DNA from: a virus | Lineage: Duplodnaviria > Heunggongvirae > Uroviricota > Caudoviricetes | IMG/VR virus record: IMGVR_UViG_2529292905_000015 | Reading direction: 5' to 3' (one strand) | DNA length: 28,103 bases | Part shown: piece by piece, positions 1-15,808 of the stretch | Numbering within the stretch: the first letter of the stretch is position 1 | Layout: each line of letters starts with the position of its first letter | The notes under the pieces: model-generated | The model's input: the letters and a program-made list of their open reading frames with translations, nothing else | Told to the model about the DNA's origin: nothing | Database searches by the model: none | Position numbers and translations under genes: made by a program

Positions 1-1032
1 TTATTTGATTTCAATTTTGTCCCACTCCCTGCCTCTGTCATCACGATACTGTGATGCCATGGTGTCCGACTTATGCCCGAGAAGATGTTGAGCAAACTTA
101 TCGCTTATCTGCTTCTCATAGAGTCTTGCAGACAAACTGCGCAACTCGTGAAAGGTAGGCGGATCCCCTTCGAAGGAAAGACCTGATGCTTTTCGTGCGC
201 GCATAAAATACCTTGATACTGTGCCGGATGAAAGCGGTTCACGACGAGTAGATGCAATTATGGTTTCTCCGCCAAGAATCTCTTTGCATTTATCAAGTGT
301 TTCCTTCATTGATATCCCGAGAGCATCAACATGCAATGTTGTAGGGATGGCAATTTTTACGCCTGTTTTGCTTTGTTCGACATAAAGATATCCATCTACG
401 ATATCAGACCACTTCATTTCGCATAAATCACCAACTCGCTGCCCGGTAACAACAGCCAGTTCCATTGCAAGTCTGAGCCAACATGGTGATGATTCTGCTG
501 CTTGATAAATTTTCAGGTATTCGTCAGCCGTAAGTCTTGATCTCCTTACCTCTGATTTTGCTGCGCGAGTGGCAGCGACCGGGTTTGTTGTTATATGGCC
601 TTCAGCTATTGCCTCTCGGAATGCATCGCTCAGTGTTGATCTGATTAACTTGGCTGACGCCGCCTTGCCCTCGTCTATGTATCCATTGAGCATTGCCGCA
701 ATTTCTTTTGTGGTGATGTCTTCAAGTGGAGCATCAGGCAGCCCCCTCCTTATTGCTTTAATTTTGCTCATGTAATTTATGAGTGTCTTCTGCTTGATTC
801 CTCTGCTGGCGAGGATTTTTTCGTAGCGATCAAGCCATGAATGTAACGTAACAGAATTATCACTGTTGATTCTCGCTGTCAGAGGCTTGTGTTTGTGTCC
901 TGAAAATAACTCAATATTGGCCTGTATTGCTTCAGTGATTGCTATCCTCCTGTCTCGGCCTAAACCAAACTCTTTACCCGTCCTTGGGTCCCTGTAGCAG
1001 TAATATCCATTGTTTCTTATATAAAGGTTAGG
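1..1032 (-). pseudogene. int: Lambda-type tyrosine integrase (Int), truncated at its 5' end by IS629; lacks about the first 12 codons. The ORF-track extension to 1125 runs into the IS and begins on a TTG.
   Basis: Translation is near-identical to remembered lambda Int from PNLYIRNNGYYCYRDPRTGKEF through the C-terminal REWDKIEIK; stop codon at 1-3 on the minus strand; the IS629 terminal repeat starts at 1033 immediately after the PNLY codons. Confidence 0.85.
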
Positions 1033-1086
1033 TGAACCGCCCCGGGAATCCTGGAGACTAAACTCCCTGAGAAAGAGGTAAACAGG

Positions 1087-1413
1087 ATGACTAAAAATAC
1101 ACGTTTTTCCCCCGAGGTCCGTCAACGGGCAGTTCGTATGGTTCTGGAAAGTCAGGGCGAATATGACTCACAATGGGCGGCAATTTGTTCCATTGCCCCA
1201 AAGATTGGCTGTACGCCAGAGACTCTGCGTGTGTGGGTTCGTCAGCATGAGCGGGATACCGGGAGTGGTGATGGTGGATTCACCACCGCTGAACGTCAGC
1301 GTCTGAAAGAGCTGGAACGTGAAAATCGTGAACTGCGCCGCAGTAACGATATCCTTCGCCAGGCTTCCGCTTATTTTGCGAAGGCGGAGTTCGACCGCCT
1401 CTGGAAAAAATAA
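1087..1413 (+). CDS. IS629 transposase OrfA (helix-turn-helix DNA-binding subunit)
   Basis: 108 aa, [30 protein letters not shown]..., matches remembered IS629/IS1203 OrfA; ends in an A-run followed by TAATG that overlaps the OrfB start. Confidence 0.9.
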
Positions 1414-2300
1414 TGCCACTGCTGGATAAGCTGCGTGAGCAGTACGGGGTCGGACCGGTATGCAGTGAACTGCATATTGCCCCGTCAACGTATTACCACT
1501 GTCAGCAACAGCGACATCATCCTGATAAACGCAGTGCCCGTGCGCAGCGCGATGACTGGCTGAAGAGAGAGATACAGCGCGTATACGATGAAAATCATCA
1601 GGTGTACGGTGTGCGTAAAGTCTGGCGCCAGTTGTTACGCGAAGGTATCAGGGTGGCCAGATGTACAGTGGCGCGCCTCATGGCGGTTATGGGACTTGCC
1701 GGTGTTCTCCGGGGTAAAAAGGTCCGTACTACCGTCAGCCGGAAAGCCGTTTCCGCAGGCGACCGCGTAAACCGTCAGTTCGTGGCAGAACGTCCTGACC
1801 AGCTGTGGGTGGCTGATTTTACTTACGTCAGCACATGGCAGGGCTTCGTCTATGTGGCGTTCATCATTGATGTGTTTGCCGGATGCATCGTGGGGTGGCG
1901 AGTCTCATCGTCTATGGAAACGACATTCGTGCTGGATGCACTGGAGCAGGCGTTGTGGGCCCGTCGGCCGTCCGGCACAGTCCATCACAGTGATAAAGGT
2001 TCTCAGTATGTATCACTGGCCTATACGGAGCGACTAAAAGAAGCAAAACTGCTGGCATCAACAGGGAGTACAGGTGACTCGTATGACAACGCGATGGCGG
2101 AGAGCATCAATGGTCTTTACAAAGCGGAGGTAATACACCGTAAGAGCTGGAAAAACCGTGCAGAAGTGGAACTGGCCACACTCACGTGGGTGGACTGGTA
2201 TAACAATCGACGATTGCTGGGAAGGCTGGGTCATATCCCTCCGGCAGAAGCAGAAAAAGCTTATTATGCTTCCATCAGAAACGATGATCTGGCAGCCTGA
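1413..2300 (+). CDS. IS629 transposase OrfB (DDE catalytic subunit), in the -1 frame relative to OrfA; normally made as an OrfAB fusion by frameshifting
   Basis: 295 aa with an integrase-core DDE-type sequence (…WVADFTYV…HSDKGSQY…YDNAMAES…); the frame relationship to OrfA is typical of IS3-family elements. Confidence 0.9.
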   Translation: MPLLDKLREQYGVGPVCSELHIAPSTYYHCQQQRHHPDKRSARAQRDDWLKREIQRVYDENHQVYGVRKVWRQLLREGIRVARCTVARLMAVMGLAGVLRGKKVRTTVSRKAVSAGDRVNRQFVAERPDQLWVADFTYVSTWQGFVYVAFIIDVFAGCIVGWRVSSSMETTFVLDALEQALWARRPSGTVHHSDKGSQYVSLAYTERLKEAKLLASTGSTGDSYDNAMAESINGLYKAEVIHRKSWKNRAEVELATLTWVDWYNNRRLLGRLGHIPPAEAEKAYYASIRNDDLAA

Positions 2301-2370
2301 GTTCACAGATAAAACACTCTCCAGGAAAACCGGGGCGGTTCAGCCTTTTTATTTGGGGGAGAGGGAAGTC

Positions 2371-2811
2371 ATGAAAAAACTAACCTTTGAAATTCGATCT
2401 CCAGCACATCAGCAAAACGCTATTCACGCAGTACAGCAAATCCTTCCAGACCCAACCAAACCAATCGTAGTAACCATTCAGGAACGCAACCGCAGCTTAG
2501 ACCAAAACAGGAAGCTATGGGCCTGCTTAGGTGACGTCTCTCGTCAGGTTGAATGGCATGGTCGCTGGCTGGATGCAGAAAGCTGGAAGTGTGTGTTTAC
2601 CGCAGCATTAAAGCAGCAGGATGTTGTTCCTAACCTTGCCGGGAATGGCTTTGTGGTAATAGGCCAGTCAACCAGCAGGATGCGTGTAAGCGAATTTGCG
2701 GAGCTATTAGAGCTTATACAGGCATTCGGTACAGAGCGTGGCGTTAAGTGGTCAGACGAAGCGCGACTGGCTCTCGAATGGAAAGCGCGATGGGGAGACA
2801 GGGCGGCATGA
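2371..2811 (+). CDS. ninB: NinB (Orf family recombination protein)
   Basis: [56 protein letters not shown]... is near-identical to lambda NinB; ATG at 2371 preceded by GGGAGAGGGAAG; stop overlaps the next start (ATGA). Confidence 0.9.
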
Positions 2812-2990
2812 GACGACAGCGACGAAGTTTCACCGACATCATCTGCGAAAACTGCAAATACCTTCCAACGAAACGCTCCAGAAATAAACGCAAGCCAATC
2901 CCAAAAGAATCTGACGTAAAAACCTTCAACTACACGGCTCACCTGTGGGATATCCGGTGGCTAAGACATTGTGCGAGGAAAACAAGGTGA
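2808..2990 (+). CDS. ninE: NinE-like small protein (60 aa)
   Basis: [51 protein letters not shown] matches remembered lambda NinE; start overlaps the ninB stop. Confidence 0.75.
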
Positions 2991-3157
2991 TTGACCAAAA
3001 TCGAAGTTACGAACAAGAAAGCGTCGAGCGAGCTTTAACGTGCGCTAACTGCGGTCAGAAGCTGCATGTGCTGGAAGTTCACGTGTGTGAGCACTGCTGC
3101 GCAGAGCTGATGAGCGATTCGAATAGCTCGATGCACGAGGAAGAAGATGATGGCTAA
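2945..3157 (+). CDS. ninF: NinF-like small Cys-rich protein; start uncertain (GTG at 2945 or GTG near 2987)
   Basis: C-terminal part [45 protein letters not shown] matches remembered lambda NinF; the first codon of the track ORF is GTG. Confidence 0.7.
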
Positions 3158-3770
3158 ACCAGCGCGAAGACGATGTAAAAACGATGAATGTCGGGAATGG
3201 TTTCACCCTGCATTCGCTAATCAGTGGTGGTGCTCTCCAGAGTGTGGAACCAAGATAGCACTCGAACGACGAAGCAAAGAACGCGAAAAAGCGGAAAAGG
3301 CAGAAAAGGCAGCAGAGAAGAAACGACGACGAGAGGAGCAGAAACAGAAAGATAAACTTAAGATTCAAAAACTCGCCTTAAAGCCCCGCAATTACTGGAT
3401 TAAACAAGCCCAACAAGCCGTAAACGCCTTCATCAGAGAAAGAGACCGCGACTTACCATGTATCTCGTGCGGAACGCTCACGTCTGCTCAGTGGGATGCC
3501 GGACATTACCGGACAACTGCTGCGGCACCTCAACTCCGATTTGATGAACGCAATATTCACAAGCAATGCGTGGTGTGCAACCAGCACAAAAGCGGAAATC
3601 TCGTTCCGTATCGCGTCGAACTGATTAGCCGCATCGGGCAGGAAGCAGTAGAGGAAATCGAATCAAACCATAACCGCTATCGCTGGACTGTCGAAGAGTG
3701 CAGGGCCATCAAGGCGGAGTATCAACAGAAACTTAAAAAACTGCGAAACAGCAGAAGTGAGGTTGCATGA
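3147..3770 (+). CDS. ninG: NinG (Rap-like recombination protein)
   Basis: [42 protein letters not shown]... near-identical to lambda NinG; start overlaps the ninF end. Confidence 0.9.
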
Positions 3771-4432
3771 ATATCTACGAAAGAATTGATGGCAGCAAAT
3801 ACCGAAATATTTGGGTAGTTGGCGATCTGCACGGATGCTACACGAACCTGATGAAAAAACTGGAGACGATAGGATTCGACACCAAAAAAGACCTGCTTAT
3901 CTCGGTGGGCGATTTGGTTGATCGCGGTACAGAGAACGTAGAATGCCTGGAATTAATCACATTCCCCTGGTTCAGAGCTGTACGTGGAAACCATGAGCAA
4001 ATGATGATTGATGGCTTATCAGAGCGTGGAAACGTCAATCACTGGCTGCTTAATGGCGGTGGCTGGTTCTTTAATCTCGATTACGACAAAGAAATTCTGG
4101 CTAAAGCTCTTGCCCATAAAGCAGATGAACTTCCGTTAATCATCGAACTGGTGAGTAAAGGAAAAAAATATGTCATCTGCCACGCCGATTATCCTTGTGA
4201 TAAATACGAGTTTGGAAAGCCAGTTGATCATCAGCAGGTAATCTGGAACCGCGAACGAATCAGCAACTCACAAGACGGGATCGTGAAAGAAATCAAAGGC
4301 GCGGACACGTTCATCTTTGGTCATACGCCAGCAGTGAAACCACTCAAATTTGCCAACCAGATGTATATCGATACTGGCGCAGTGTTCTGCGGAAACCTCA
4401 CATTGATTCAGGTACAGGGAGAAGGCGCATGA
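3767..4432 (+). CDS. ninI: NinI-type serine/threonine protein phosphatase (PPP family)
   Basis: GDLHGCY and GNHE metallophosphatase motifs; near-identical to remembered lambda NinI (221 aa); ATGA overlap with ninG; GAGG Shine-Dalgarno upstream. ninC, ninD and ninH are absent. Confidence 0.9.
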
Positions 4433-4560
4433 GACTCGAAAGCGTAGCTAAATTTCATTCGCCAAAAAGCCCGATGATGAGCGACTCACTACTGGCCACA
4501 GTTTATTGGTTTTCGTAACTGAGTCATTTTATTATTTTATTGCAACTTTTAATCTTTTAT

Positions 4561-4610
4561 AGTGCGAAATAAATGGAGCTGGCATTCATTTCGCACTTTA
4601 TGTTTTTGTT
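4561..4610 (+). terminator. Putative intrinsic terminator: perfect 10-bp inverted repeat (AGTGCGAAAT / ATTTCGCACT) with a 17-nt loop, followed by TTATGTTTTTGTT
   Basis: Read directly from the sequence; lies between ninI and the convergent minus-strand cargo gene. The T-rich tail is on the plus strand only. Confidence 0.45.
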
Positions 4611-4643
4611 GGACTTATGTTATTTTGATTGAATTCAATTCAG

Positions 4644-5603
4644 TTAAAAAAAGAAGGTGATTGCTCCATTTATAAATGAATAGTCATCCCCTGTCTTGAA
4701 TTCTGATGTTACTTTATTAAATGCTAGTGTGAAGGCTACAGGTGCATACCCAATTGTTGCGCCAACTTGATATTCATCAACAGTTTTGTTTAGCGATACT
4801 GTTGTTTGTTTCGTCTGTATTGTTTTTCCTTCGAGAGTATAGTTGCGATTGACATCTCGTCTTTCCATACCTGCAAAAATCTTGTATTTGAATCCGCTTG
4901 TATCGGACATATGCATTAAACCACGGGGAGCCAGCAGACCAAAGCCATTATCCGAATTGAAGGTTTTATCATTACCAATGGCAATGGTTGCGCCATATGC
5001 TACATATTGAAATAAGTTTCCAGTAACAGCAGAAACTTCAGGGTATAATCCAACATTAGCACCTAAAATATCCATACTTGGTGTCATGGATAGCATCCCT
5101 TTTACAGTATAACCGTAGCGATTCTCTATTTGATCATCCCATGCATGATATTTTTCTGCCCCAATAATCTCATGAGCTTTATTTTGTACTTTCTGACCGC
5201 CTGCGTCGGGGCCAACAACACCTATGTCAGTACCTAATCGATAGCGAATCCAGTCATTCGCAAGGGAGTTCCATTCAATACCAGTGTGAGTGTATGCACT
5301 AAAAGCTCTGTCTCCAGTTACAGCTGTGTTGTGTCTTTTATTACTGCCTGATGGAGAGTAAATATCTTGCGCAATATGGAGAGATAATTGGCTCGAGTCT
5401 GAGATATCGTGGCTATATCCCAGAAATAAGCCTTGTGAGTAATCATCTCTGTTTTCATGTTTATTGCCATAAATATCATTAAGTATTGGTTGAAACTTCC
5501 CTGCATCATCATTTGCTAATGATAATGCAAGGCTGTTCGCGATAGCTGAACACGTGGTAAATGACAGAGCAATAAAGACGCCAGCGATGACACTTTTTTT
5601 CAT
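4644..5603 (-). CDS. Outer-membrane beta-barrel protein, cargo gene; tentatively LpxR-like lipid A 3'-O-deacylase
   Basis: 319 aa; N-terminal signal peptide MKKSVIAGVFIALSFTTCSA; alternating amphipathic segments; C-terminal aromatic FFF typical of a beta-barrel signature; AT-rich with atypical codon usage; antisense to the flanking phage genes. Size and position recall the prophage-borne LpxR of EHEC, but this is from memory, not a sequence match. Confidence 0.7.
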   Translation of the reverse strand: MKKSVIAGVFIALSFTTCSAIANSLALSLANDDAGKFQPILNDIYGNKHENRDDYSQGLFLGYSHDISDSSQLSLHIAQDIYSPSGSNKRHNTAVTGDRAFSAYTHTGIEWNSLANDWIRYRLGTDIGVVGPDAGGQKVQNKAHEIIGAEKYHAWDDQIENRYGYTVKGMLSMTPSMDILGANVGLYPEVSAVTGNLFQYVAYGATIAIGNDKTFNSDNGFGLLAPRGLMHMSDTSGFKYKIFAGMERRDVNRNYTLEGKTIQTKQTTVSLNKTVDEYQVGATIGYAPVAFTLAFNKVTSEFKTGDDYSFINGAITFFF

Positions 5604-5993
5604 ATGTTATTGTCTTCCTTTTTTTGAATGGTGCGCGTATTTTACATACATGAGTTTGTAATACAAGGTGCGTAATCAATATGATGTTTTATAATTGCGT
5701 GAGACAATTGATTTATTCGTTTTTTATTGCGGTTTTTATTATCTTTTAATGTAACGGTGTTTTTATTAAGTGTGTTTGCGTGGTGTTTTATGTTTTTTAT
5801 AATTTTTATTTTATTAAATTTAAATGCATTAGTAATGGCTATTCTATATAGCAATATAAGAACTGTTACAAAAAAAGGGGGGGCAATTACAGGTAGTTAT
5901 GGATGATGAGTGAAACAGATATTGGAGAACCGGGGAATGAATGATGTCTGAGTCTTATATATCAGAACTCCTTCGCTGTCGCTGGGGGCTCCT
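5604..5993. promoter_or_regulatory. Strongly AT-rich divergent intergenic region with phased T-tracts (GTTTTTATT repeats); probable promoter region for the cargo gene and Q, and a plausible curved-DNA / H-NS target
   Basis: Repeated T5-6 tracts spaced roughly 10-12 bp apart between about 5690 and 5820; sits between divergent genes. H-NS binding is inferred from composition only. Confidence 0.4.
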
Positions 5994-6767
5994 GTGCTTA
6001 TGTCGTTTCCCCGATTCGGTTTTGAACGATTACCGAATGTTGAAGAATTATGCCAAAATATAGAAAGGATTTACTGCATGAATACCCAATATTTACAGTA
6101 TGTTCGTGAGCAACTTATGGCAGCTACTGCTGACTTGAACGGAGCAACGAAAGGCCAGCTCGAAGCCTGGCAGGAGCATGCACAATTTGATACTGGTACA
6201 TACAAACGAAAGAAGCCGCGCATTCTGGATGTGGTAACTGGCAAGATGATTACGCTGGATAATACGCCGACTTCCGGTAAGCAGTCGTACGCAAAAGGTT
6301 CATCCATTGCTTTGGTCAGCCCGGTTGAATTCTCAACCTCTTCATGGCGCCGCGCGGTTTTGTCTCTCGATGAACATCAGAAAGCATGGTTGCTTTGGTG
6401 TTACAGCGAAAGCGTTCGATGGGGGCATCAGGTCACCATAACGCAATGGGCATGGAGCGAGTTTAAAGATTTGTTAAGTAACAGAAAAATTGCAGGTAAG
6501 ACACTGGATCGCCTGAAGACGTTAATCTGGCTGGCTGCACAGGATGTGAAGAGCGAACTTGCAGGGCGTGAGGCCTATGAATACCAGACACTGGCATCAT
6601 TGGTGGGAGTGACAACAAAAAACTGGTCCGAGACATTTACTGAACGCTGGGTTGCAATGAAGCACATTTTTCTACAGCTTGATAGTGATGCTTTATTGCT
6701 TGTGACGAGAACACGTTCAAAACAAAAGGCAGCATTTTTACAGCAAAATATTGCAAAACTGGATTAA
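5994..6767 (+). CDS. Late-gene antiterminator Q, long form; probable true start at ATG 6078 (MNTQYLQYVREQL...)
   Basis: Sits between the nin region and the PR'-tR' unit and lysis genes; resembles the roughly 250-aa Q proteins of E. coli cryptic prophages (from memory); the track ORF begins on GTG at 5994; ATG 6078 has an AGGA motif about 8 nt upstream. Confidence 0.6.
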   Translation: MLMSFPRFGFERLPNVEELCQNIERIYCMNTQYLQYVREQLMAATADLNGATKGQLEAWQEHAQFDTGTYKRKKPRILDVVTGKMITLDNTPTSGKQSYAKGSSIALVSPVEFSTSSWRRAVLSLDEHQKAWLLWCYSESVRWGHQVTITQWAWSEFKDLLSNRKIAGKTLDRLKTLIWLAAQDVKSELAGREAYEYQTLASLVGVTTKNWSETFTERWVAMKHIFLQLDSDALLLVTRTRSKQKAAFLQQNIAKLD

Positions 6768-6779
6768 AAGCCATATACT
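6751..6779 (+). promoter_or_regulatory. PR'-like late promoter: -35 TTGCAA (6751-6756), 17-bp spacer, -10 TATACT (6774-6779); the Q-utilisation site is expected to overlap
   Basis: Sigma-70 consensus-like hexamers with ideal spacing, immediately after the Q stop and about 35 nt upstream of a strong terminator; a -10-like TATGTT lies in the initially transcribed region, as at lambdoid pause sites. Confidence 0.5.
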
Positions 6780-6814
6780 TCATGCAAATTTGGTATGTTG
6801 TAAAAAATGTATAA

Positions 6815-6839
6815 ACCCGCTGCCGAGTGGGTTTTTTTT
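6815..6839 (+). terminator. tR'-like intrinsic terminator: 7-bp stem ACCCGCU / AGUGGGU (one G-U pair), GCCG loop, then eight T
   Basis: Hairpin plus T8 read directly from the sequence, about 35 nt downstream of the PR'-like -10. Confidence 0.7.
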
Positions 6840-6936
6840 ATGCCCTGAGTTGTACTTGTACGGTAAACATGCTGGCTGCTATGTAATAGAGTTTTTTTAG
6901 CCTGTAACCTCTTGACGGCATTGAATTGCTTTTGTT

Positions 6937-7695
6937 ATGAGTTGTAAGCCAATGTTATCATCTTGTATTGGGGTGGTTATGAAGGATGGTGCGCTGCTCA
7001 GGAGTTCTTCACTTTTTATTGCCTACATGGGATGCCTTGGATGGGGGAGTGCTTATTTCTATGGATGGGGTACTTCTTTTTACTACGGCTTCCCATGGTG
7101 GATTGTAGGTGCAGGTGTTGATGATGTTGCCAGAAGTTTATTTTTTGCAGTTATCGTCATTGCTATATTTCTTATCGGTTGGGGTATTGGTGTTGTATTC
7201 TTTTTCGCAGTGAAAAGAAAACATTCTATGCAAGAGCTAAATGTATTTCGCCTTTATTTTGCTGTGGAATTATTGTTTGTGCCGGCAATTATTGAGTTTT
7301 CTATATTGAGACAGAAGATTCAGGTACCTCTTTTGCTACTGTCAGCAGCGATTGCGCTGGCGGTTACAATTTCGATAAGATCTTATGGGCGATTTTTATC
7401 GGTATCATGCTTCTATGATAAGCCATTTATAAAAAAACATTTTTTTGAGATTGTGATGATTGCTTTTGTGGCATATTTCTGGCTTTTTTCATTTCTGACA
7501 GGATATTACAAACCACAGTTTAAGAAAGAATATGAAATGATTAATTATAATGATGGTTGGTATTATGTTCTTGCTCGTTATGATAATTGTCTGGTTTTGT
7601 CTACTTCTTTCAATGCAGGTAGTAAAAGGTTTGTCATTTATCAATCAGCACAAGATAAGAATCTTCAGGTTGATATTGTAAGGACCAGAATTTAA
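6937..7695 (+). CDS. Polytopic inner-membrane protein of unknown function (moron between Q and the lysis cassette); start ambiguous (ATG 6937, 6952 or 6979)
   Basis: About 5 predicted hydrophobic helices, an aromatic/Gly-rich N-terminal segment (GWGSAYFYGWGTSFYYGFPWW) and a roughly 60-aa hydrophilic C-terminal tail; AT-rich; possible own promoter TTGACG (6912-6917) with TATGAG about 18 bp downstream. Confidence 0.65.
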   Translation: MSCKPMLSSCIGVVMKDGALLRSSSLFIAYMGCLGWGSAYFYGWGTSFYYGFPWWIVGAGVDDVARSLFFAVIVIAIFLIGWGIGVVFFFAVKRKHSMQELNVFRLYFAVELLFVPAIIEFSILRQKIQVPLLLLSAAIALAVTISIRSYGRFLSVSCFYDKPFIKKHFFEIVMIAFVAYFWLFSFLTGYYKPQFKKEYEMINYNDGWYYVLARYDNCLVLSTSFNAGSKRFVIYQSAQDKNLQVDIVRTRI

Positions 7696-8125
7696 TTGGC
7701 TGCATAAATAATATTTTAAGTTGCAAGTTGGCTATTCGTAGGAATAGAACCTTAGGCATGCTGAATGCGTTTCCTGAACATTGTTTTATAAACTGTGTCT
7801 GCTTGCTGTTGTGATCCTGCTTTTAGTGATGGTGATGATGGATTTCACCAGCAGGATAATGTTGGTACTGACTGATGGCGCTCTGGTCTGCGGCATTGTG
7901 GTATTGCTGTGGCCGATGATGAAAGAACAGAATGAATAATTCTTGACTTTTTTGTTTACTGTTTATTAAAAAATCAACCGCATGGTGAATCCTCCTTGGA
8001 GGGGCTAAATGATCGAGTTTTAAGGGCACGTAGCGAGTTCTGTTTGATCATTGCAGAACTTAGCGGGAGGCGCCATGCGTACATCACTAATGTTATTTCC
8101 TTCTATCATTTTCCTTGTGAGTTCT

Positions 8126-8152
8126 GGCTGCGCATGGCGCGGCCTTTTTTTT
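8126..8152 (+). terminator. Strong intrinsic terminator: GGCUGCGC-AUG-GCGCGGCC hairpin followed by eight T
   Basis: 8-bp GC-rich stem with one G-U pair and a T8 tract, read directly; lies downstream of the moron and upstream of the lysis cassette. Confidence 0.7.
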
Positions 8153-8328
8153 ATGACCTGCCACTGGCAGATGGTCATCCTGTGATTTGATTCCGGTTCC
8201 GGCTTTTTAACTCTGTTCCTGTACACGGGAGAAATTCTATGTCGATTAATCGTTATGATATTGGTTACAAGAAGTACCACGTATTGTGTTGAGATAGAAA
8301 GCATGGTGCCAGAGGTAAATGCAGCAGC

Positions 8329-8380
8329 ATAATAAAAAAGAGCCAGCGCAGAAGAGAACGGGTAAAAGAGTCTGCGCTGG
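8329..8380 (-). terminator. Minus-strand terminator-like element: perfect 10-bp inverted repeat (CCAGCGCAGA / TCTGCGCTGG) with an 18-nt loop, followed on the minus strand by CTCTTTTTTATT
   Basis: Read directly; the U-rich tail exists only on the minus strand; a consensus-like minus-strand promoter lies about 55-110 bp upstream of it (see findings). Confidence 0.5.
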
Positions 8381-8560
8381 CGTGGGGATATTCCCCGTGG
8401 AGAAATGATATGTAACACACATCGGGAACCTTTCTATATAAACATTATCATTATTGTCAATCATAACAGTCAGGTATTATGACGTTTATGCATCAGGGCC
8501 ATCAGGAATTAACTGGTGGCTTTTTATTGTTGTCAGCTTCCGGATAACGGGAGACGGGGT

Positions 8561-8776
8561 ATGTACCAGATGGAAAAAATAACAACAGGTGTGTCATACA
8601 CCACGTCAGCGGTGGGGACGGGATACTGGCTACTGCAGTTGCTGGACAAAGTCTCCCCATCCCAGTGGGTGGCAATAGGCGTATTGGGTAGCTTGGTGTT
8701 TGGCTTGCTGACGTATCTGACAAACCTTTATTTCAAGATTAAAGAAGATAAGCGTAAGGCTGCGAGAGGTGAATAA
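8561..8776 (+). CDS. S: Class II holin, phage 21 S-type pinholin, with a dual-start motif (MYQMEK)
   Basis: [66 protein letters not shown] closely resembles remembered S21; two transmembrane segments; stop overlaps the endolysin start. Confidence 0.85.
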
Positions 8777-9273
8777 TGTCGCCATCATTACGCAAGGCTG
8801 TTGCTGCTGCTATTGGTGGTGGGGCTGTTGCCATAGCGTCTGTGCTCATCACTGGTCCGAGTGGTGACGATGGCCTGGAAGGTGTCAGCTACATACCATA
8901 CGAAGATATCGTTGGCGTATGGACTGTATGTCACGGACACACCGGAAAAGACATCATGCCCGGTAAAACGTATACCGAAGCAGAATGCAAAGCCCTCCTG
9001 AATAAAGACCTTGCCACGGTCGCCAGACAAATTAACCCGTACATCAAAGTCGATATACCGGAAACAACGCGCGGCGCTCTTTACTCGTTCGTTTACAACG
9101 TGGGCGCTGGTAATTTCAGAACATCGACGCTTCTTCGCAAAATAAACCAGGGTGATATCAAAGGCGCATGTGATCAGCTACGGCGCTGGACATACGCTGG
9201 CGGTAAGCAATGGAAAGGGCTGATGACTCGCCGCGAGATTGAGCGTGAAGTCTGTTTGTGGGGGCAACAATGA
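8776..9273 (+). CDS. R: SAR (signal-anchor-release) endolysin, lysozyme-type, phage 21 R-like
   Basis: N-terminal Gly/Ala-rich weakly hydrophobic segment ([20 protein letters not shown]) followed by a lysozyme-like domain; immediately follows the pinholin. Confidence 0.85.
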
Positions 9274-9737
9274 GCAGAGTAACCGCGATTATCTCCGCTC
9301 TGGTTATCTGCATCATCGTCTGCCTGTCATGGGCGGTTAATCATTACCGTGATAACGCCATCGCCTATAAAGAACAGCGTGATAAAAAAGTCAGTGAGCT
9401 GAAGCAGGCGACCGCCACCATTACTGACATGCAGCAGCGCCAGCGTGCTGCTGATGCACTCGATGCTAAATACACGAAGGAGTTAGCTGATGCGAAAGCT
9501 AAAAATGATGCTCTTCGGCGCAAGCTTGATAATGGTGGTCGGGTGTTCGTCAAAGGAAAATGCCCTGTGCCATCCTCAGACGAAACCTCCAGCGCCTCCG
9601 GCATGGGCAATGATGCCACCGTCGAACTCTCTCCAGTTGCTGGACGAAACGTTCTCGGTATCCGGGACGGAATTATCCGCGACCAAACAGCACTGAGAAC
9701 GCTTCAGGAATACATCAGGACGCAATGCCTTCGATGA
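9270..9737 (+). CDS. Rz: Rz i-spanin (inner-membrane spanin subunit)
   Basis: N-terminal transmembrane segment ([20 protein letters not shown]) then a coiled-coil-like charged periplasmic domain; ATGA overlap with the endolysin stop; contains the embedded Rz1 frame. Confidence 0.8.
9490..9696 (+). CDS. Rz1: Rz1 o-spanin (outer-membrane lipoprotein), embedded in the +1 frame of Rz
   Basis: Lipobox ...IMVVGCSS and a proline-rich mature region ([13 protein letters not shown]); N-terminus MRKLKMML resembles lambda Rz1; lies entirely within Rz. Confidence 0.75.
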
Positions 9738-9910
9738 TAGCGATAATTTTACTCATCATCCTTCACATCTGGCTCTGTAGACAGGGTGGTGCTCACTTCT
9801 GGAGTGAATCATGGTTAAACATCTCATTGCTGATGCTTGATATTGAGCATCTGGCGCGCGGTAAGGGGCTGCGTTGAGATAAGAGCCAGTCATTAAAAAT
9901 ACCTGGATTT

Positions 9911-9936
9911 AGCCTCGCATTCGCGGGGCTTTTTTA
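9911..9936 (+). terminator. Intrinsic terminator-like hairpin AGCCUCGC-AUUC-GCGGGGCU followed by T5
   Basis: Read directly, about 170 bp downstream of Rz. Confidence 0.5.
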
Positions 9937-10354
9937 TTGCCATTACAAAAGCCACTCCCTACAGAGTGGCTTTGATAATGGCTTATACCCTACACGGGAT
10001 AACTTAACTGATATCCCTTTTAACGGATAAAGGTATTCAAGCCTGACACATCATGCGCTGTATCGTCGCTGTATTCCCGCATTAACCATGACCGTAGCCC
10101 GACGGGGAACTCCTTCTGCGCGAGTGTGCGGGAATAATCAAAAACGATGCACACCGGGTTTTTACCGCGCTAATGATTCGCGGGTTTGTCCCTCATGCTC
10201 GCCAGTCCTGTGCGGGGGTGGAAGAAACAGGACACTCACACAGATTCTTGTGGGTCGATGCTATTCCTTTCTGGATTATCCCGATGCCATTCATGCAAAG
10301 GCTGTATCAGACGTTCGTCATGGCTTTCAGGCTGACGGCTCCTCCCGGTGGGGT

Positions 10355-14875: not shown

Positions 14876-15808
14876 ATGCAGGCTGGTCACCAGAGTGACG
14901 CGGATATTTATATTTATGACGAGATTGGTTTCTGGGGTGTTACAGCGAAGCAGTTTATCAGTGATCTGAATGCACTGGGCGATATCACCCACATTAATCT
15001 CCATATCAATTCACCGGGTGGCGATGTCTTTGAAGGCATCGCCATTTTTAATGCACTGAAAACACATGGTGCGTCCATTACCGTTTATGTCGACGGTGTG
15101 GCGGCGTCAATGGCGTCGGTCATTGCGATGGTGGGAAAACCGGTCATTATGCCGGAAAACTCCTTCATGATGATTCATAAACCATTTGGCTTTACGGGCG
15201 GTGATGCGGAGGACATGCGCACCTATGCCGACCTGCTCGATAAAGTTGAGGCGGTTCTGTTACCCGCTTATGCACAGAAAACCGGGAAAGCCACCGATGA
15301 AATTGCTGCCATGCTGGCGGATGAGACCTGGATGTCCGGTGCCGAATGTCTGGCACATGGATTTGCTGATCAGGTGACGCCAGCCGTTAAGGCAATGGCA
15401 TGTATTCAGTCAAAACGTACAGAGGAATTTAAAAAGATGCCGGAATCCATTCGAAACATGATTACTCCGCCACGCAACAGTGCTCCACGCGTACAGGATG
15501 ATGGACCTGCAGCCTCCCGGACGCCAGTGCAGGCAGCAGCACCTGTGGTGGATGAAAACAGTATCCGTGCGCAGGTACTGGCAGAGCAAAAAGCGCGTGT
15601 AAACGGTATTAATGATCTGTTTGCCATGTTTGGCGGGCGTTATCAGACGCTGCAGGCTCAGTGTCTTGCCGATCCTGAATGTTCGCTGGAGCAGGCCCGC
15701 GAAAAGCTGTTGAACGAGATGGGGCGCGAGTCCACGCCATCTAATAAAAATACCCCGGCTCATATTTATGCCGGAAACGGTAATTTTGTGGGGGATGGGA
15801 TCCGCTAG
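14876..15808 (+). CDS. Prohead maturation protease, ClpP/S49-like (possibly with a C-terminal scaffold region)
   Basis: ClpP-fold-like core with GVAASMASVIAMVG and …MIHKP…; follows the portal. The track ORF begins earlier at 14615 but overlaps the portal; ATG 14876 lies just after the portal stop. Confidence 0.75.
   Translation: MQAGHQSDADIYIYDEIGFWGVTAKQFISDLNALGDITHINLHINSPGGDVFEGIAIFNALKTHGASITVYVDGVAASMASVIAMVGKPVIMPENSFMMIHKPFGFTGGDAEDMRTYADLLDKVEAVLLPAYAQKTGKATDEIAAMLADETWMSGAECLAHGFADQVTPAVKAMACIQSKRTEEFKKMPESIRNMITPPRNSAPRVQDDGPAASRTPVQAAAPVVDENSIRAQVLAEQKARVNGINDLFAMFGGRYQTLQAQCLADPECSLEQAREKLLNEMGRESTPSNKNTPAHIYAGNGNFVGDGIR

Follow-up and report, generated by a model that had tools for sequence, protein, structure and literature searches.

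How does a prophage that has lost its repressor come to carry an apparently complete lysis module, and what keeps that module silent? The question arises at positions 5994 to 9737 of IMG/VR virus record IMGVR_UViG_2529292905_000015, a 28,103-nt stretch of DNA (the window). It belongs to a lambdoid prophage of the type integrated beside ybhC in Escherichia coli and makes up the left two-thirds of it. The segment runs from the gene for the late antiterminator Q through the late promoter PR' to the genes for the holin (S), the endolysin (R) and the two spanins (Rz and Rz1); the terminase, head and tail operon follows from 9.7 to 28.1 kb. No repressor gene was found within the 28,103 nt. We conclude with good confidence that the module represents the dormant late-control and lysis genes of a ybhC-adjacent prophage of the Sakai Sp3 family, closely related to phage 434, whose early region was lost through an IS629-associated deletion, that Q would be silent without promoter PR and antiterminator N, and that the intactness of the module reflects how recent the deletion is. 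Having kept Q and S-R-Rz/Rz1 and lost cI, cro, N, PL and PR, it is a defective lambdoid prophage of the Sp3 or DLP12 kind. The identity and intactness of all parts of the module, the deletion and its recency are established by the analysis below.

Loss of the early region

A preliminary description of this DNA held that cI, cro and N had been deleted together with PR and PL. This is correct, since the insertion sequence (IS) IS629 directly joins codon 14 of the integrase gene to the remains of terminator tR2. The left end of IS629 abuts int, and its right end abuts the last tR2 bases, 28 nt before ninB. The element stands in place of everything from xis through ren (xis, the recombination genes, N, the repressor gene cI, cro, cII, O, P and ren), with PL and PR. 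The bases flanking it are not duplicated, which would fit a deletion junction. Strain FDAARGOS_946 carries a close relative of this prophage, with 18 substitutions and two single-base indels across the 25.7 kb from 2343 to 28103, and in the corresponding interval it keeps a LexA-family repressor gene, a cro-like gene, cII, a frameshifted O gene and P.

Related prophages lost the early region by other events. O157:H7 strain 4276 differs from the window in having an IS in exo and a deletion from bet to ninE, and in O145 strain 95-3192 an IS is joined to ren. The IS629/ninB junction (2314 to 2400) was spanned in 0 of 5,426 complete E. coli genomes, in which only the ninB side matched. At curated Rfam thresholds, the IS629 frameshift pseudoknot was the only match across the window.

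Q and the late promoter

The match of Q to PF06323 covers profile positions 1 to 216 of 220 at 306.8 bits (cutoff, 25). The phage 82 Q, which has been studied biochemically, belongs to the same Pfam family and is identical at 203 of 229 residues (89%) in a gapless, full-length alignment. A sequence search of the PDB with Q returned chance matches only (E ≥ 0.1), with no solved relative by sequence. Q had been described as intact, and the full-length family match and 100% DNA identity to phage 434 bear this out. The gene itself was thus correctly recognized, while its start had been misplaced at GTG 5994. We rejected that start in that it overlaps ylcG (5944 to 6063), the 84 nt before 6078 being ylcG and spacer; the true start is ATG 6078, which has a ribosome-binding site, AAAGGA, 8 nt to its 5' side and is also the start in RefSeq and in the phage 434 record.

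The DNA of Q, PR' and tR' is 100% identical to that of phage 434, which is viable. Over longer stretches, identity to phage 434 is 100% at 5900 to 7000, 99.1% at 6768 to 8263 and 98.6 to 100% across 2800 to 8263. PR', too, had been reported as present and intact, and it is identical in phage 434. The Q gene sits directly 5' of this promoter, which is followed by a -10-like pause element and then by a terminator (with the transcription start assumed). The element, TGGTATGTT, lies 12 bases 3' of PR' and spans +6 to +14 if the start is 6786, which is assumed, and the predicted leader RNA from PR' to tR' is about 55 nt long. At pR' of phage 82, a sigma-70-dependent pause occurs at +25, and the position of the -10-like repeat there matches the layout of TGGTATGTT; in the window, as in the published account of 82 pR' (PMC5001585), the repeat lies some 9 bp downstream of its place in lambda. 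The bases after the repeat are GTA in the window (start 6786 assumed) and GCC in phage 82, whose layout is taken from its description, record X92588 ending at the Q stop. That Q, PR' and tR' match phage 434 base for base suggests that this Q would act in antitermination at its own promoter.

Q is not adjacent to S but separated from it by 1.75 kb of DNA that contains tR', a 247-amino-acid membrane open reading frame (ORF), tciB, two genes resembling small RNA (sRNA) genes and two further intrinsic terminators. On the plus strand, predicted intrinsic terminators beyond tR' lie at 8126 to 8154, 8495 to 8530 and 9911 to 9940, so that three terminators stand between PR' and the lysis genes and a fourth before the structural genes. 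In lambdoid late control, PR' fires and the transcript stops at tR' unless Q is made, and this terminator-rich layout is the standard design of a Q-dependent late operon. A tRNA scan of the window found 0 tRNAs, so that the tRNA cluster that Shiga toxin phages have 3' of Q is missing here. The T-run of tR' (6835 to 6842) is T8 in the window and T7 in O157:H7 TW14359, a polymorphism in the terminator that gates the late operon.

The lysis cassette

Next, we examined the claim that a pinholin, a signal-anchor-release (SAR) endolysin and both spanins are intact. S, R, Rz and Rz1 were aligned with their counterparts in phages Ayreon, 2B8, JLK-2012 and 434, with an endolysin consensus drawn from five comparators. 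In this closer alignment, a search for inactivating mutations in S, R and Rz found every invariant position matched. All four proteins agree with viable phages in every invariant column, S and R equal the consensus outright, and each has a full-length Pfam match. The claim therefore holds.

The holin scores 112 bits against PF04971 (cutoff, 26) and has both Met1 and Met4. Residues G40, S44 and G48, invariant among the comparators, are kept; the second transmembrane segment (35 to 56) is strongly hydrophobic, and the first is weakly hydrophobic. By these features S is predicted to be a class II holin, a pinholin of the S21 type. The long form (8561 to 8572) begins MYQM, with no lysine, where the Ayreon holin begins MKSM (MYQ versus MKS in the first residues), and the holins of phages 434 and 2B8 are without Met1. 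Judging by S21, a long form without lysine may have only weak antiholin function.

Over 165 amino acids, the endolysin shares about 96% identity with the solved structures 3HDE (R21) and 4ZPU (DLP12 RrrD). It keeps E35, D44 and T50, the Glu-Asp-Thr catalytic triad as assigned in R21 and T4 lysozyme. Its N-terminal segment, 7 to 28, is uncharged and rich in Gly and Ala, with 11 Gly/Ala and 0 charged residues at 8 to 27. S21 and R21 of phage 21 and EssD and RrrD of DLP12 resemble the window genes in their holin Pfam family, catalytic residues and SAR segment.

In Rz, an N-terminal transmembrane segment occupies residues 1 to 26, and all comparators share its cysteines C98 and C153. In Rz1, C19 belongs to the lipobox, VVGC, with C27 coming later; this lipobox and a proline-rich core, KPPAPPAW, are conserved. 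Overlapping starts with ribosome-binding sites had also been noted, and both are there: S ends and R begins within TAATG (8774 to 8778), R ends and Rz begins within ATGA (9270 to 9273), and Rz1 follows an AAGGAG. Despite its clear PF06085 match and lipobox, Rz1 is unannotated in RefSeq records of relatives. A further ORF of 50 amino acids (9725 to 9877, plus strand) overlaps the end of Rz; it has an N-terminal hydrophobic segment and no Pfam match, and an ORF occupies the same position in Ayreon. Coordinates of all features are collected in Table 1.

Table 1. Features of the window, in order of position, with the evidence for each
Feature	Position	Strand	Evidence
Lambda-type integrase gene without its first 13 codons and start codon	1-1032	-	100% identity to bases 1-1032 of the 1071-nt int coding sequence in O157:H7 strain 4276 and O145 strain 95-3192
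IS629, 1310 bp, transposase on the strand of Q	1033-2342	+	Terminal inverted repeats TGAACCGCCCCGG ... CCGGGGCGGTTCA; ALIL frameshift pseudoknot, 120.9 bits
tR2 terminator remnant (last stem bases and T-run; hairpin destroyed)	2343-2355	+	Alignment with the phage 434 ren-ninB interval, where a terminator is annotated
nin region (ninB, ninE, ninF, ninG, ninI phosphatase)	2371-4432	+	RefSeq annotation of a 99.9%-identical relative; ORFs
N-terminal remnant (24 codons) of a lambda-type Q gene	4429-4500	+	RefSeq: partial antitermination protein; phage 434 record: N-terminal fragment of lambda Q
Candidate intrinsic terminator against rightward readthrough, just past the lpxR stop (14-bp hairpin, 4561-4597, and U-rich tail)	4561-4612	+	Fold -18 kcal/mol, z = -2.6
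Moron lpxR (lipid A deacylase), convergent with transcription of nin and Q	4644-5603	-	PF09982, E = 7e-40
ylcG-like small ORF directly 5' of Q	5944-6063	+	Annotated in RefSeq and phage 434; no Pfam match
Q antiterminator, phage 82 type, 229 amino acids	6078-6767	+	PF06323, full length, E = 1e-91
PR' (late promoter, TTGCAA-17-TATACT; overlaps the end of Q)	6751-6779	+	Promoter scan; identical in phage 434; position fits lambdoid architecture
Extended -10-like repeat TGGTATGTT, candidate sigma-70-dependent pause element for Q loading	6791-6799	+	Read from the sequence
Terminator tR' (9-bp stem, 6813-6834, and T8)	6813-6842	+	Terminator and fold scans, z = -3.3; annotated terminator in phage 434
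Multipass membrane protein moron of the late leader, 247 amino acids	6952-7695	+	Annotated in relatives and phage 434; hydrophobic segments; no Pfam match
tciB (DUF3927 small membrane protein)	7781-7939	+	PF13064, E = 3e-14; TciB in phage 434
STnc100-like sRNA region, probably of PasD type, closed by a strong intrinsic terminator (8126-8154)	7950-8155	+	Rfam RF02076, 37.7 bits (cutoff, 47), E = 1e-6
Esr41-like sRNA gene with its own terminator (previously described as an antisense element)	8332-8437 (5' end estimated)	-	Rfam RF02676, 32.3 bits (cutoff, 102), E = 3e-4, aligned over 8332-8421
Intrinsic terminator directly 5' of the holin gene	8495-8530	+	Terminator and fold scans; 11-bp stem, z = -3.0
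S, S21-type pinholin (predicted), 71 amino acids; second start Met4 at 8570	8561-8776	+	PF04971 ("P21 holin S"), E = 1e-32
R, SAR endolysin (R21/RrrD type), 165 amino acids	8776-9273	+	PF00959, E = 8e-46
Rz, inner-membrane spanin, 155 amino acids	9270-9737	+	PF03245, E = 2e-28
Rz1, lipoprotein spanin of the outer membrane, encoded within Rz in its +1 frame; AAGGAG ribosome-binding site	9490-9696	+	PF06085, E = 2.5e-21
Terminator that separates lysis cassette and terminase genes	9911-9940	+	Terminator and fold scans; phage Ayreon likewise has one annotated there
In-frame TAG in the prohead protease/major capsid fusion gene, shared with the O55:H7-type relative	15806-15808	+	"Internal stop" flag in the relative
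1-nt deletion in an A-run, frameshifting the tape-measure gene; window specific	21835	+	Gene intact (3066 nt) in FDAARGOS_946

Probable silence of the lysis genes

In phage 434, Q is reached only from PR, with N suppressing the terminators en route. In the window Q would not be made, its only known promoter, PR, and the antiterminator N being gone. PR' would fire constitutively, with transcription stopping at tR', and only RNA polymerase modified by an 82-type Q at the promoter-proximal pause would pass tR' and the terminators at 8126, 8495 and 9911. Readthrough past those terminators would switch on S, R, Rz and Rz1 first and the structural genes after them. A matching Q supplied in trans, from a plasmid or from an 82/434-type phage, should cause lysis. 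We infer that Q is silent, that the terminators function and that activation in trans would take place. The silence of the lysis genes had been attributed to the lack of Q, to terminators or to an antisense element at 8329 to 8460. Because PR, N and cI are gone, silence must rest on absent Q and on terminators, in keeping with standard lambdoid logic; these two parts of the proposal stand, and the antisense element does not, as set out below.

Recent deletion or selection

We then considered whether the intactness of the module is meaningful. Positions 5994 to 9737 (3,744 bp) are 100% identical (3744/3744 bases) to prophages of O55:H7 and O55:H7-like genomes and at least 99.9% identical to O157:H7 prophages. 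At a coverage of 80% or more, 508 genomes have the module, and in O157:H7 each genome gives two matches for an 82-type Q gene. Against the O55:H7-type relative that retains an immunity region, the number of differences across this segment is 0. Such zero divergence from a repressor-bearing relative leaves no time for decay, and therefore the intactness of the cassette needs no selection. The structural genes hold two inactivating lesions in about 18 kb, namely, the internal stop and the tape-measure frameshift (Table 1). At that density, Q, S, R and Rz (1.87 kb together) would be expected to hold about 0.2 lesions, with P(none) at about 0.8.

The cassette has been damaged in relatives. IS1203 interrupts Q in O157 strain 644-PT8 and rrrD, the endolysin gene, in an O111:H8 strain. 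Relative to the window, the cassette of O157:H7 TW14359 carries L42S in S, V18A and M61I in R and L19Q in Rz (four nonsynonymous and 0 synonymous changes), with S L42S and Rz L19Q altering transmembrane residues that do not vary among the comparators. These lesions argue against strong maintenance, and both neutral decay and counterselection fit them. Given the zero divergence, the lesion-rate estimate and the natural knockouts, we rejected selection as what keeps the cassette intact. As part of the reading given at the outset, the cassette is most likely intact owing to the recency of the deletion.

Several observations weigh against that reading. The Q protein is 100% conserved across O55, O157, O145, O26 and O111 prophages, and this conservation could reflect selection rather than recent spread. 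DLP12 shows that such cassettes can come under host regulation. The spacer between lpxR and ylcG contains promoter-like hexamers, such as TTGTAA-18-TATGAT at 5656 to 5685, and a Q promoter in this AT-rich DNA is conceivable; the promoter scan neither shows nor excludes one. That scan returned 13 sites versus 16.6 expected, with the spacer hexamers no commoner than chance, and among its sites the predicted PR' is the only one supported, by its position and its identity to phage 434. Finally, the hairpin at 4561 was not called by a simple terminator scan, and its U-tract is interrupted.

The best-placed alternative is domestication of the lysis module on the DLP12 pattern. Low-level or subpopulation expression of Q or of S-R-Rz, driven by envelope-stress or virulence regulators, would then serve envelope remodeling, the release of vesicles or contents, or biofilm formation, and selection would keep the cassette. 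DLP12 of E. coli K-12 resembles the window in being a defective prophage with a Q-type antiterminator and S-R-Rz/Rz1; expression of its cassette has been shown experimentally, and S-R-Rz/Rz1 is reportedly controlled by the Q-type antiterminator, RpoE and Hha, with an effect on vesicle production (PMC7918800). The identity of Q across many pathogenic lineages would agree with such a role, as would the fact that the early region was lost independently at least three times (in the window, in O157:H7 and in O145) with Q and the lysis genes kept. DLP12 differs from the window in being older and far more decayed, and the regulation by RpoE and Hha is reported for DLP12. DLP12 is not known to carry an immunity region, and a ylcG gene lies beside its Q.

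Domestication would also be in line with the neighborhood of Q, which adjoins the Ler-regulated lpxR across an AT-rich divergent region. The published modulon of the LEE (locus of enterocyte effacement) lists lpxR as Ler regulated and accounts for 43 of 44 genes (39 LEE genes plus lpxR, nleA, stcE and etpC), and its text names lpxR but no Q or lysis gene among them (PMC9263587). The natural knockouts Q::IS1203 and rrrD::IS1203, the purely nonsynonymous TW14359 changes with their transmembrane substitutions at invariant positions, and the zero divergence from a repressor-bearing relative also speak against domestication, which we consider unlikely here.

A more specific proposal places the control in the lpxR-ylcG spacer itself (5604 to 5943). 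This DNA would put Q under H-NS and Ler/Pch control like lpxR, or under envelope-stress control as in DLP12, so that virulence or stress conditions would trigger late transcription, lysis or vesicle release in a fraction of cells, and the O157 missense and IS changes would represent selection tuning this down. Because the LEE modulon text names lpxR but no Q or lysis gene, the proposal is weakened, and we regard it as quite improbable.

Readthrough from IS629 and the minus-strand element

The preliminary description also warned that readthrough from IS629 into Q would be lethal. IS629 is indeed oriented toward Q, and tR2 is destroyed, so that readthrough from IS629 into ninB is unterminated; weak readthrough of the transposase gene could enter ninB and continue through ninI. 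Such a transcript would then meet the 4561-to-4612 hairpin, about 1.4 kb of RNA antisense to lpxR and the AT-rich spacer at 5604 to 5943 (340 bp; 25 to 29% GC). The roughly 1.4 kb between ninI and ylcG is untranslated as RNA antisense to lpxR, with a C-rich stretch at 5000 to 5300, and should be a good Rho substrate without N. Established N and Rho biology suggests that the hairpin and the antisense stretch, with N absent, would shield Q from IS629 or nin readthrough, whereas phage 434 crosses this interval with N. In addition, the arrangement exists in a sequenced isolate. The warning is therefore unsupported.

On the minus strand between Q and S, convergent with late transcription, lies the element that had been proposed to keep lysis silent as an antisense RNA at 8329 to 8460. 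We found instead an Esr41-like sRNA gene that diverges from S on its 5' side. The minus strand at 8325 to 8440 folds at -38.7 kcal/mol (z = -6.2) and ends in an 11-bp stem and a U-run, and a promoter-like site was found by the promoter scan at 8473 to 8444 on the same strand. The Esr41 alignment covers the 5' region and the terminator, whose loop is 25 nt versus 7 nt. As the score lies below the gathering threshold, the gene is a relative of Esr41 at best and no member by the Rfam criterion. Esr41 is a trans-acting sRNA of enterohemorrhagic E. coli.

We rejected this element as a cis-antisense silencer of S. Its RNA would run from about 8437 to about 8332, a stretch over 120 nt upstream of where S begins, and its closest Rfam match, a subthreshold one, is trans-acting. 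The gene overlaps neither S nor its ribosome-binding site, and two intrinsic terminators flank it. The claim that it silences lysis is thus unsupported, and the element is best read as a small-RNA moron typical of this interval. A model in which IS629 or nin readthrough does reach Q, so that the terminator at 4561 to 4610 or the antisense RNA at 8329 to 8460 would be the main check and small perturbations would kill the host, draws on the orientation of IS629, the loss of tR2 and the convergent minus-strand gene and is very unlikely given the hairpin and antisense stretch without N, the nonoverlapping and apparently trans-acting RNA, and the sequenced isolate that carries the arrangement.

The plus-strand region at 7950 to 8155 can be placed by its neighborhood. 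According to a 2026 preprint, PasD sRNAs are related to STnc100 in structure, have lpxR and Q within 10 kb in over 98% of cases and a holin/lysozyme operon beside them, and often have Esr41 matches near them. The region in the window has lpxR, Q and the holin operon as neighbors, its counterpart in phage 2B8 lies just 5' of an esterase gene, and this setting fits the PasD context of the preprint. By synteny, it is probably a PasD-type sRNA.

RefSeq annotates a 132-amino-acid ORF, WP_012578864.1 (8020 to 8418, minus strand), across both sRNA-like elements. Its counterpart in O26 and O111 is flagged as a pseudogene, frameshifted and with an internal stop, and for this reason the ORF is probably spurious and no real gene.

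Comparison with known prophages and phages

The closest published case is Sp3 of strain Sakai, which is without CI, Cro and the replication genes and has a disrupted int. All eleven lambdoid prophages of Sakai encode Q and a full lysis gene set. Sp3 shows no circularization, replication or packaging and, after mitomycin C, lies outside the prophages with DNA amplification or marked transcript increases (PMC2669165). The ybhC-adjacent prophages of O157:H7 examined here share with the window int beside ybhC, lpxR, an identical Q protein, the 247-amino-acid ORF, tciB and S-R-Rz. From their common properties, these O157:H7 prophages are probably the equivalents of Sp3.

Phage 434 has the same succession as the window, namely, the lambda-Q remnant, lpxR on the opposite strand, ylcG, a "Q82-like" Q, PR', tR', the membrane ORF, tciB and a terminator (OL657226.1). 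The two are also alike in having a pinholin, a SAR endolysin and spanins. Phage 434 differs in being a complete phage with an immunity region. Its lysis genes are 93.5% identical to those of the window, its holin exists in the 68-amino-acid form only and its Rz is 63% identical. Positions 8264 to 8560 of the window are missing from phage 434; between its counterpart of the 8126 terminator and S stands a SASA esterase gene, in the place that the Esr41-like gene takes in the window.

Upstream of Q, the lambda-Q remnant at 4429 to 4500 marks a mosaic junction. The interval from 4429 to 5943 is itself a mosaic, in which this remnant is followed by a low-GC module with lpxR on the opposite strand and by ylcG, ahead of the 82-type Q. 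The proteins of this module, LpxR included, are 100% identical across O55, O157, O145, O26 and O111 prophages that have differing nin regions.

Implications

The situation described here is already known, having been published for Sakai Sp3 (PMC2669165) and for DLP12 (PMC7918800), and the particular IS629 deletion junction is the sole new element. A literature search on lysis or the antiterminator of CP-933K gave nothing specific. Beyond good annotation, the value of the locus is small. In practical terms, the gains are a corrected Q start, an unannotated Rz1 gene and two likely small-RNA genes in the late leader. For the biology of this prophage family, the window provides a clean, well-delimited case of a recently grounded lambdoid prophage with its late switch and lysis genes intact. 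Together, the repressor-bearing O55:H7-type relative, the IS629 deletion, the O157:H7 and O145 deletions, Q::IS1203 and rrrD::IS1203 make up a comparison set for the decay of the lysis cassette after loss of immunity.

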